From sequence record PQ657772.1: a stretch of DNA of 64,000 nt; one strand, written 5' to 3'. Below, one piece after another: positions 9,957-11,995 of the stretch; position 1 is the stretch's first letter; every line of letters begins with the position of its first letter. The DNA is from Escherichia phage EC.P1. The translations under genes and the position numbers were made by a program. Below the pieces are notes generated by a model that was not told the origin of the DNA, made no database searches, and saw nothing but the letters and a program-made list of their open reading frames with translations.

Positions 9957-10070
9957 CGTTTTAATCTCTCTTAATGTGTAGCGGGAAGTGTTCCCGCTCT
10001 CGATGTAAAACATTATACGCTTTTATCAGTACGGTGCAAGTACTTTCTACAAATACTTTTAAAATAGTTT

Positions 10071-10167
10071 TCTTTCTATATAGGAGTACTATTATTCAGT
10101 ACTGAATCAATCCAGGGGAACTATCTTTCTATATAGGAGTACTATTATTCAGTACTGAATCAATCCA
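10071..10167. repeat. tandem direct repeat, 2 x 44 bp (period 53), each carrying palindrome TTCAGTACTGAA
   Basis: tctttctatataggagtactattattcagtactgaatcaatcca at 10071-10114 and 10124-10167. Confidence 0.8.
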
Positions 10168-10785
10168 CTAAATCATCCCTATACCCCGTAAAACGGCCTC
10201 AGACGCATTCTAACGCATTAATACACATAAGCTATACATTTGCACCATTCCAATCATTCCAGGGCTTTACAGGCCGTTTAAACGCGTTAAATTATTTTCA
10301 ATTATTTTGTTTTTAGGTATTGACTTGATCCTGAAAAAGCGTATAATTACTACATAGACGCGAGAAAGCGGATACCCCAGGGGGTGGGAAGATCCGTCCA
10401 AAATTCAAGATATAAAAAAAGGATACACTCCCGCACCCTAGCAGGTAAACGCACTTTCTCAGTACTGAAATATAGTACCATAGTCCGGCCCAGGATAGCA
10501 AGCAAATTAATTAAAACTTTTTTGCTTCCAGGGTATTGCTTTATTTTTTCAGTACTGTATAATAGTTCCATCAAGTCGAGAAAGACTCAAGCCCACCGGG
10601 TGCATAGTTACGCCCAAAATTCAGTACTGAAAAAATTTTTAAAAATATCCGGCCAGGCCGTTGACATTGCCCCCAGTTTATAAGATAATGATTCCAGATT
10701 CAGAAAAATCTAACACCAGATACTGCGGGGAAACTATCCCCACGCGGTAGGGGAACTATTGGAAAAAACAAAATAAAATTTTGAT

Positions 10786-10950
10786 TTAGCCGTCTATACT
10801 TCCAGACGTGTAACCATCTAGCCGTTTAGCCGTCCAAACGTCTAGCCATCCAGCCATCCAGAAATCTAGCCGTTTAGCCGTTTAGATGGATAGCCATCTT
10901 TACTTCCAGACTTCTGGAGGGCTAGACATATCTACGCCCAAAATCCATCC
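10786..10950. repeat. iteron-like short direct repeats (TAGCCGT x5, CCATCCAG x3, ACTTCCAGAC x2)
   Basis: clustered short repeats in a locally GC-richer non-coding patch; candidate protein-binding array or origin. Confidence 0.6.
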
Positions 10951-11595
10951 AGGGTAACTACACCCAAAATCCGTCAGTACTATACCATAGATCTATCTTT
11001 TGAAAGGGAGTATTCAGTACTGCCATCATAGCCCTCACTATGTTACCCTAGGAGGATGAAGACCATCATGTAGTACTGAATACTGTTAGAGGGAATCCAC
11101 CAGCTTGTGCTGGTGGCATAATGCTTTAGATTAAAATCAGTACTGACACCATTCTGTTAATATCAGTACTGTTATTACGATTTTCATATGAGGTTCAAAA
11201 AGATGTACCACCACAGGAGGAACTATCTTTTCTGTACTGTCTCACGACAGGAGGTAGAGTAAATGAATTGTTCGCAGCAACTCATCACCCTATGTAGAAC
11301 ATTATACAGTACTGAATCATAAAGTCAATAACTTTCTTTCATCTTTCAGTACTGATATTCTTGAGAACTACCCGACTACAAACATCATTATATCCCACAA
11401 ATCATAAACGTCCCAACGTAAATTTCAACTTTCGAAGATCCAACTTTTATTTCATAGGTACTCCAAAATTTTTAGGATCGAGATTTAGGATGGAGTACTA
11501 ACCAACTTTTTGCTGGAGCCTCAAGGGGTAATGGAATTTTACCCCGAAGGGTAAAGGGGTAATTGAAATTAAGGTGAAAGTAATAATTCAGTACT

Positions 11596-11875
11596 AATCA
11601 TTGCGTGATTACTTTTGATTACATTTGATGTAATTTGCAAAATGGAAAAGGAGCTTGGAAACTACAAAGTACGGCAGACTTCCTCTGCCTACTTAGTGGG
11701 ATATCGCCACCTTCAGTACTGAATACTTTTAGGGCAGTACTGCTACGTTCTTGATTAAACGTGCACATTCCTGTACTCTATTACACTCTGGTACTCAATA
11801 CTGATCACTACAATGATTATAAATGATTACTTAAATGTTTATATATGATTACTTATGACTACATATGATTACGGG
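11596..11875. repeat. TGATTAC direct-repeat clusters (11596-11630 and 11812-11875)
   Basis: ATGATTAC repeated at least 6 times in non-coding DNA. Confidence 0.5.
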
Positions 11876-11995
11876 GTTTAGCCTGGGGAGAATCCTAGTG
11901 ATCGCATTTGTCCAGGCTGAATTTTAACAATTCTTCTAATTGTTAAAGCCTGTCCAATGCTTTCCCTGCGGAGCTTCCCCTGTCTATATGTTGAA

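Follow-up and report, generated by a model that had tools for sequence, protein, structure and literature searches.

The stretch analysed here, 64,000 nucleotides (64 kb) of Escherichia phage EC.P1 (sequence record PQ657772.1; hereafter the window), contains a region of ~1,980 bp at positions 10014-11995 that carries no convincing gene and that we call the hub. The hub is probably a control region without genes, placed where the phage chromosome has its left physical end and where one boundary of a ~21-kb direct terminal repeat (DTR) is located. An earlier note on this DNA had described promoters and repeats in the region and had proposed a replication origin, a partition or packaging site, or a cluster of small regulatory RNAs. 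The genome end, a pair of Chi sites, the metbox-like character of an 8-bp array and the genome-wide spread of the motif AGTACT were not part of that note.

Source phage and layout of the hub

When positions 9900-12100 were compared with GenBank phages by megablast, 43 records were matched. All full-length matches are Escherichia or Salmonella jumbo phages of 350-385 kb from the 121Q/PBECO4/G17 group (Asteriusvirus), with Ecwhy_1 (97.5%) and fEgEco12 (97.2%) as the best matches, and at least 80% of the hub is covered in 31 records. By these matches the source phage is assigned to the Asteriusvirus-type jumbo coliphages (121Q/PBECO4/fEgEco12 group), which rules out a T5 first-step-transfer or injection-stop region, a guess made from the layout.

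The open reading frames (ORFs) in the hub are short (30-99 aa), and for every one of at least 30 aa, two or more of eight close relatives show an interrupting frameshift or stop, in agreement with the earlier view that this ~2-kb region has no convincing ORF. The G17, 121Q and A4 records annotate no coding sequence in the hub, and its flanks in these records are homologues of ORF 9594-9956 and ORF 11996-12202, both on the minus strand. Two candidate genes were rejected: the 99-aa ORF 10384-10683, annotated in fEgEco12, is disrupted in relatives, and the 19-aa ORF 11263-11322, behind a strong AGGAGG, is without a start ATG in A4 and carries a frameshift in G17. The hub is non-coding, yet its conservation equals that of the flanking genes. 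We note that AGGAGG occurs three times on the plus strand within 11040-11260 without a conserved ORF behind it; on the transcript from the promoter at 11328, the same three sites read CCUCCU, resembling the 3' end of 16S rRNA. The features of the hub are as follows.

10012-10039, minus strand: promoter of the first early gene, TTGCAC-16-TATAAT, then a gttttacatc leader and a GGGAAC..GTTCCC hairpin (read from sequence)
10071-10114 and 10124-10167: tandem repeat with a 53-bp period, two identical 44-nt cores, each with AGTACT and TTCAGTACTGAA
10320-10347, plus strand: promoter P1, TTGACT-16-TATAAT, 11/12 consensus match
10352-10391, plus strand: RNA motif copy u1 behind P1, core; extended fold to ~10470; 54.1 bits
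10536-10563, plus strand: promoter P2, TTGCTT-16-TATAAT, with CAGTACTG in the spacer (read from sequence)
10568-10607, plus strand: RNA motif copy u2 behind P2; 43.7 bits
10661-10689, plus strand: promoter P3, TTGACA-17-GATAAT, 11/12 consensus match
downstream of P3 to 10760, plus strand: hairpin AGATT-CAGAAA-AATCT, then a GGGG..CCCC hairpin; z = -2.65
10788-10931: tandem array with an 8-bp period, ~18 units, consensus AG[A/C]C[G/A]TCT, the strongest period-8 signal in the window
11097-11116: perfect inverted Chi octamers, CCACCAGC-ttgt-GCTGGTGG, forming a hairpin; 578-597 bp from the end
11138-11171, minus strand: hairpin of two CAGTACTG copies with a T-rich tail, terminator-like, 14 pairs
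11328-11301, minus strand: promoter TTGACT-16-TATAAT, 11/12 consensus match, directed inward from the genome end
11457-11499: inverted-repeat element, GGTACTCCA-N25-TGGAGTACT, identity 0.98-1.00
11606-11639: inner TGATTAC array of 2-3 units with period 10, located 55-88 bp inside the end
11673-11693: terminal hairpin GGCAGACTTCCTCTGCC and left genome end, placed by the starts of relatives; the predicted left-end sequence from 11693, likewise transferred from relatives, is 5'-AGTAGGCAGAGG...
11694-11880: unique DNA beyond the DTR, with two CAGTACTG copies (11714, 11735), a poorly conserved stretch and the outer TGATTAC array
11802-11872: outer TGATTAC array, ~6 units, period 10-11, 109-179 bp outside the cut
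11884-11985, minus strand: long hairpin with imperfect pairing, behind the last small-paralog gene; -38.7 kcal/mol, z = -4.87

The probable left genome end and its surroundings

The vB_Ec-M-J record, in which the DTR is annotated at 1-21,525, and the fEgEco12 record both begin with the base at window position 11693 exactly. For fEgEco12, PhageTerm gave the ends and a DTR of 20,993 bp, which restriction digests then confirmed (PMC13070987), and the Muenster record carries an annotated DTR of 20,030 bp. Because two independent relatives start at 11693 and the ends of fEgEco12 are confirmed, the hub is read as the left boundary of the ~21-kb DTR, and sequence comparison places the left physical end of the chromosome at the DTR boundary 11693/11694, inside the hub. 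A sensitive search located the stretch 10300-10780 on the opposite strand 0.9-1.4 kb from the record start in ~10 relatives, often with a second match near the other end and often under a "direct terminal repeat" feature. DTR-resolved records contain the hub sequence up to 11693 at each of their two ends, and the other side is unique. In a nine-genome alignment, identity to the window is 0.85-1.00 up to ~11700, is 0.63-0.71 at 11700-11820, and then rises again. On this evidence, positions 10014-11693 are assigned to the first ~1.7 kb of the DTR and positions 11694-11995 to unique DNA abutting the right-hand DTR copy, so that the hub would be the junction in replicating concatemers. The packaging site proposed in the earlier note is supported in a sharper form, as a DTR boundary within the hub.

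A phage terminal control region at a DTR boundary is a known kind of locus, and the end position has already been published for a sister phage. The contents of the hub are undescribed in the literature we found; the undescribed parts of this terminal control region are early promoters, phased arrays, an end element, a Chi pair, an RNA motif and a MetJ-type super-operator. Reportedly, the left end and concatemer junction of T7, with the early E. coli promoters A0-A3, are organised in a similar way: a fixed end at the DTR boundary, a gene-free leader of at least ~1 kb, short direct-repeat arrays on both sides of the repeat boundary, and strong host-type promoters directed inward together with at least one toward the end. 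T7 differs in that its DTR is 160 bp, compared with 21 kb here, and the hub belongs to a T4-related jumbo myovirus. T7 also has no RNA motif family, Chi pair or metbox-type array, and no sequence similarity to the hub.

Three features are common to left ends across genera. The first is AAGTC, which occupies genome positions 13-17 in three genera (fEgEco12, Muenster and XbC2). The second is the element AGTACTCCATCCTAAATCTCGATCCTAGAAATTTTGGAGTAC (window 11457-11499), which is the best-conserved part of the hub in the nine-genome alignment and also lies 70-240 bp inside the left ends of XbC2, Munch and fENko-Kae01. The third is a strong inward promoter-like sequence: in Muenster, XbC2 and Munch, TTGAC-type sequences were found by eye at a distance of 270-390 bp from the end. 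The terminase would recognise and cut the DNA here, guided by three candidate signals: AAGTC at +13-17, the terminal hairpin, and the GGTACTCCA..TGGAGTACT element. In Asteriusvirus, the 10-bp-phased TGATTAC arrays on both sides may also guide it.

AT-rich TGATTAC repeats had been noted earlier near 11596-11630 and 11812-11875, and we find them at 11606-11639 and 11802-11872 with a period of 10-11 bp. The outer array is the strongest period-10 signal of the window, and the inner array of vB_Ec-M-J has one extra unit. These arrays are candidate binding sites for the small terminase or another end-binding protein. The TGATTAC repeats may also resemble CpxR or OmpR sites. As a clade-wide packaging signal they were rejected, being confined to Asteriusvirus among the ends compared, and they cannot be a general recognition signal because they are missing at the right boundary and in other genera. 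A motif common to both DTR boundaries was also rejected: the right boundary of fEgEco12 (..TAACCT-TAGCGA.., the hyphen marking the boundary) and the left one (..CCACTA-AGTAGG..) share a weak CT-(T/A)AG likeness, and the right one has neither TGATTAC nor any repeat array. In the packaging sites SPP1 pac (pacL-pacC-pacR) and lambda cos (cosQ-cosN-cosB), the cleavage point likewise lies between phased or repeated sequences, which a small terminase subunit might wrap. The hub differs from them in that its arrays are genus-specific and missing at the other DTR boundary, and in that its ends are fixed DTR ends, whereas those of SPP1 and lambda are headful or cohesive.

The Chi octamer (GCTGGTGG) occurs 10 times in the window, compared with 0.59 expected. 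Munch and fENko-Kae01 carry the same inverted pair as the hub 484-503 bp from the end, and XbC2 has a single Chi 216 bp from the end, oriented toward it. RecBCD reads Chi in one orientation, in which the octamer is carried by the strand that has its 3' end where the enzyme enters. For the genome end at 11693 this is the plus strand, and the plus-strand Chi at 11109-11116 faces that end. This Chi would switch RecBCD entering here from degradation to RecA loading, favouring recombination of the DTR. The inverted pair would serve both DTR copies, because the polarity of the DTR relative to the nearest end is opposite at the two ends. Like the Chi hotspots of E. coli, the sites are exact octamers at about host density, with the orientation right for RecBCD at a nearby end. 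They differ in forming a back-to-back inverted pair and a hairpin inside a terminal repeat, and by sequence they are candidates for this function. Asteriusvirus genomes have either TTGT or ACAA as the 4-nt loop of this hairpin, which appears to be flipped as a whole. The other Chi sites of the window are at 488, 5014, 5076, 18329, 32158, 40092, 51122 and 57090, with 7 of the 10 on the minus strand; those at 5014 (minus) and 5076 (plus) form a second inverted pair within the DTR.

Promoters, the two-hairpin RNA motif and AGTACT

The plus-strand sigma70-like promoters reported earlier at ~10300-10700 are recovered at 10320-10347 and 10661-10689, both matching the consensus at 11 of 12 positions, and at 10536-10563. 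Three sites reach at least 11/12, compared with 0.10 expected from shuffles. The -35 of P2 is of the TTGC type used at the early genes of this phage, and the other early genes share the upstream architecture of the promoter at 10012-10039. By position, the inward promoter at 11328 is predicted to be the first on the chromosome, and the hairpin at 11138-11171 is likely the stop of its transcript. The transcript from P3 is predicted to continue into the 8-bp array. The hairpin at 11884-11985, whose apical stem varies in sequence in relatives with its pairing kept, probably ends the small-paralog operon before the junction. After injection, host RNA polymerase would fire from the end-proximal promoters. 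The inward 11328 promoter and the first early-gene promoter would launch the early programme, and the outward promoters at 10320, 10536 and 10661 would yield short non-coding RNAs.

We also observed that early mRNA leaders have TATAAT-gttttacatc in common and, after it, a hairpin of the GGGGAA-N4-TTCCCC type immediately ahead of the ribosome-binding site (9500-9550, 9975-10010, 6740-6790 and 2230-2290). The 66-nt promoter and leader piece of the first early gene (9952-10018) recurs with 88% identity in A7_1 and A5-4, two unrelated coliphages of 145 kb.

P1 and P2 are each followed, 5-8 nt past the -10, by the pattern (C)AUMRA-hairpin 1-linker-CCC NNN GGG-UGC. The stems of hairpin 1 vary and always pair (CGC/GCG, GUC/GAC, GAC/GUC, CGG/CCG, GAG/CUC, GGC/GCC and CCG/CGG). 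The extended fold of u1 reaches -36 kcal/mol (z = -3.95), and positions 10340-10400 are 87-93% identical in Erwinia, Salmonella and Klebsiella jumbo phages. In nine hand-picked sequences, four of the six pairs show double changes, and only 0-2 of 500 shuffles reach the observed values. A covariance model finds at least seven copies in the DTR part of the window (10352, 10568, 6880(+), 137(-), 2346(-), 8488(-) and 8418(+)), each behind its own promoter, and also finds the motif in RaK2, Muenster, Munch, Kaldavass, Hallingskeid, CBB and GAP32. In a 20-member alignment, which leans towards the model, all three hairpin 1 pairs show compensatory changes in 6-10 sequences, and the covariation score is 0.496, compared with 0.094 +/- 0.03 in shuffles and at most 0.18 with the partners slid.

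No match in Rfam 15 reached the gathering score, and permissive thresholds returned only implausible eukaryotic snoRNA or miRNA families with E-values of 0.03-10; ARAGORN found no tRNA or tmRNA. By these searches the motif family appears to be new and is not in Rfam. Beyond the Rak2-like group, a 17-mer scan of IMG/VR matched 8 metagenomic contigs, 0 of which scored with the covariance model; among the scanned loci only CBB, GAP32 and RaK2 were positive. The copy at 6848-6990 stands alone, with a strong promoter and a bidirectional intrinsic terminator (CGGGGAG..CTCCCCG), between two early genes and antisense to the early-gene direction. Many copies form convergent promoter pairs ~115 nt apart, whose transcripts would be fully complementary. 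Such pairs were found at 8400-8540 in the window and at the loci L030, L038 (CBB), L006 (2010-2126) and L008 (Munch, 2013-2146).

Promoter-proximal RNA hairpins are known from lambdoid phages as lambda nut boxB and HK022 put. In these, as in the phi29 packaging RNA (pRNA) and in the hub, two hairpins start 8-10 nt into early transcripts, and, as with the phi29 pRNA gene, transcription of the hub copies would proceed from an early promoter in the direction of the left genome end. None of these RNAs has a sequence or Rfam match to the hub motif. Lambdoid antitermination differs further in that the hub copies have no downstream genes and many copies form convergent pairs. A pRNA role for the hub motif is unlikely because the phage has a conventional terminase lineage.

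These RNAs raise the alternative that the hub is primarily a small-RNA locus for trans-acting regulatory or anti-defence RNAs, with its position at the genome end being incidental. Four promoters that drive no ORF, the covariation of the motif and the stable fold of u1 favour it, as do the clean terminator at the end of the copy at 6880 and the identity seen in the 5' part of u1 between genera whose genomes are only ~29% identical. However, the motif is spread over the DTR, it covers only ~250 of the 1,980 bp, the best-conserved parts of the hub (11420-11499 and 10740-10819) are not RNA motifs, and the conservation break and the record starts place the end itself here. We therefore consider this alternative possible but not the likely one. 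The small-RNA cluster suggested in the earlier note finds support in the promoters and in the covarying motif, which is dispersed over the whole DTR and not confined to the hub.

The tandem 44-bp repeat that the earlier note reported at 10071-10167 is present as two 100%-identical copies, 30-130 bp upstream of the first early promoter, and relatives have one or two copies. TTCAGTACTGAA, which had been singled out in it, is not special to the repeat. AGTACT occurs 253 times in the window, compared with 22 expected (~12-fold), and CAGTACTG occurs 57 times, compared with ~1 expected (~60-fold), with 12 copies in the hub (6 per kb). Within genes, AGTACT is found in all three frames at 3.3 per kb, and in non-coding DNA at 6.5-7 per kb. 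Conservation at the 19 hub copies is higher than in the sequence around them (0.96 vs 0.905), and ~10 motif copies sit in promoter spacers next to the -10. Example sites are at 188, 6861, 7260, 39598 and 54924, and copies of the motif are likewise frequent at the ends of relatives from Klebsiella, Salmonella and Xanthomonas. We found neither a published description nor a known ligand of this motif.

The 8-bp array and the remaining explanations

The short direct repeats noted earlier at 10786-10950 (TAGCCGT five times and CCATCCAG three times) are both part of the 8-bp array at 10788-10931. The plurality consensus of this array is the E. coli metbox AGACGTCT. We scored it with the published half-metbox matrix and thresholds, by which a MetJ operator consists of at least two adjacent 8-bp metboxes, each with at least 1/4 of the consensus bits and together with at least the consensus bits (PMC3228920). 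Fourteen consecutive units pass, with 101 bits compared with the 12.6-bit criterion (~8-fold). Metbox runs elsewhere in the window have at most 2 units, and those in shuffles at most 3. As a control, the same script gives the K-12 metJ/metB and metF operators 4 units each, with 31 and 25 bits, and the score per unit is 7.2 bits in the array and 6.2-7.8 bits in real operators. Relatives have 16-19 units, the length of the array differing in 8-bp steps, and the conservation of the array is 0.94-0.99. XbC2 and the Erwinia phage Kaldavass have a like array (8+4+2 units) that occupies the same relative position and has its units in another order. Compared with the E. coli MetJ operators, the array has the same 8-bp tandem register and the same plurality base at all eight positions. 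It differs in having 14-17 boxes, where the two scored operators have 4, in lying in a phage and in not overlapping a promoter. The array would be coated by a protein of the ribbon-helix-helix type, most likely the host MetJ.

Several observations weigh against a terminal control region composed in this way. The end at 11693 is transferred from 97%-identical relatives, and no TGATTAC array is present at the right DTR boundary, nor at the left ends of Muenster, XbC2 and Munch or the boundary of fENko-Kae01. The hub promoters are consensus matches only, and promoter-like sequences over 9-13 kb as a whole number 16, compared with 14.6 in shuffles, which is no excess. RNA copy u2 folds no better than shuffles (z = -1.28), and the hub motif copies have no clear intrinsic terminator. 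Real met operators overlap promoters, whereas the array starts ~90 nt downstream of the P3 start and has no promoter-like site inside. Finally, position 3 is C in half of the array units, compared with ~10% of real half-boxes.

The array suggests a further explanation, in which the hub is a decoy that soaks up global regulators of the host. The 16-19-unit metbox array is predicted to bind the complex of MetJ with S-adenosylmethionine (SAM); as the array, present in two copies per genome, replicates, MetJ would be titrated and the synthesis of methionine and SAM derepressed. In Klebsiella and Salmonella relatives, the target would be Fur. The ~8-fold passing of the operator criteria at a per-unit score like that of real operators, the change of unit number in 8-bp steps, and the recurrence of the array in another unit order in Kaldavass and XbC2 are consistent with this explanation. 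No MetJ homologue is encoded in 50,697 phage records. The hubs of the Klebsiella phages RaK2, Muenster and phiKp_21 and those of Munch and Hallingskeid are without the array and carry 4-6 Fur-box-like sites that match GATAATGATAATCATTATC at 15-16 of 19 positions, where shuffles of the whole window give ~4 sites of at least 14/19. Several of these sites lie within (the apical part of) RNA units, and the hub of the window phage has none.

On the other side, besides the C at position 3, a random 8-bp repeat is as metbox-like as the array ~1% of the time. A phage protein could be the true ligand; Pfam and PHROGs revealed no known DNA-binding domain in the ten nearest ORFs, which are those the scan covered. 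XbC2 is listed on a Xanthomonas host, though it is nearly identical to an Erwinia phage, and the order of Xanthomonas is not known to have MetJ. We found nothing relevant in the literature on metboxes in phage genomes or on Fur boxes in jumbo phages. Weighing these points, we regard the decoy as a tentative explanation. More speculatively, the terminal hub of Rak2-like phages may be a swappable decoy platform for global repressors of the host. Asteriusvirus together with Kaldavass and XbC2 might then carry a MetJ super-operator of 14-19 boxes, and Klebsiella, Salmonella and some Erwinia relatives might carry clusters of Fur boxes. It is conceivable on the same terms that the DTR-borne arrays multiply, titrate the repressor and so turn on the host's methionine and SAM (or iron) supply.

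The hub might instead be a replication origin, at which transcripts from its promoters prime DNA synthesis through an R-loop, as at T4 oriF/oriG, or at which the arrays serve as iterons of an initiator. Strong promoters adjoin repeat arrays and AT-rich DNA, and in a T4-like system a fixed DTR end would by itself set off recombination-dependent replication. At the right edge of the hub, within 12.0-12.4 kb, the GC skew switches sign. This change lies 300-700 bp outside the DTR boundary, and within the 64-kb window it can be attributed to the skew at third codon positions (GC3 skew) of the neighbouring small-paralog genes, which is -0.31. GC3 skew left of the hub is ~0, and the other gene blocks in the window all differ from the small-paralog block. 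This block (11996-16800, minus strand) consists of ~20 small paralogous genes (phrog_11711, 60-80 aa), whose GC3 skew is that of the coding strand and whose first-codon-position skew is ~0. No DnaA box (TTWTNCACA) is found in 10000-12000, the ten nearest ORFs include no initiator-like protein by Pfam and PHROGs, and the metbox and end-flanking phased-repeat readings fit the arrays better. An origin is therefore improbable.

The partition site of the earlier note, in which a ParR- or omega-like protein would bind the 8-bp or 10-bp arrays as a centromere to segregate or position the phage DNA, we consider very improbable: omega binds heptad arrays and parC carries iterons, which these tandem short-period arrays resemble, and the 8-bp array is highly conserved (0.94-0.99), but Pfam and PHROGs give no match to a partition protein (ParA, ParM, TubZ or ParB type) for the ten nearest ORFs, nothing in this lytic phage requires a plasmid-like prophage state, and the 8-bp array fits the MetJ matrix well.

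With the hub read as a terminal control region, a former gap of the "hypothetical/no feature" kind becomes a map of specific elements, including the exact context of the cut and candidate terminase-binding arrays. Jumbo phages with long DTRs are under development for therapy, and the map bears on the recognition, protection and first transcription of their ends. The Chi pair could explain how a linear DNA of 350 kb survives RecBCD and recombines its repeats, and the excess of AGTACT points to a further DNA-binding activity in the clade. If the super-operator binds host MetJ, it would be, to our knowledge, the first case of a phage shown to reprogramme host metabolism by repressor titration.

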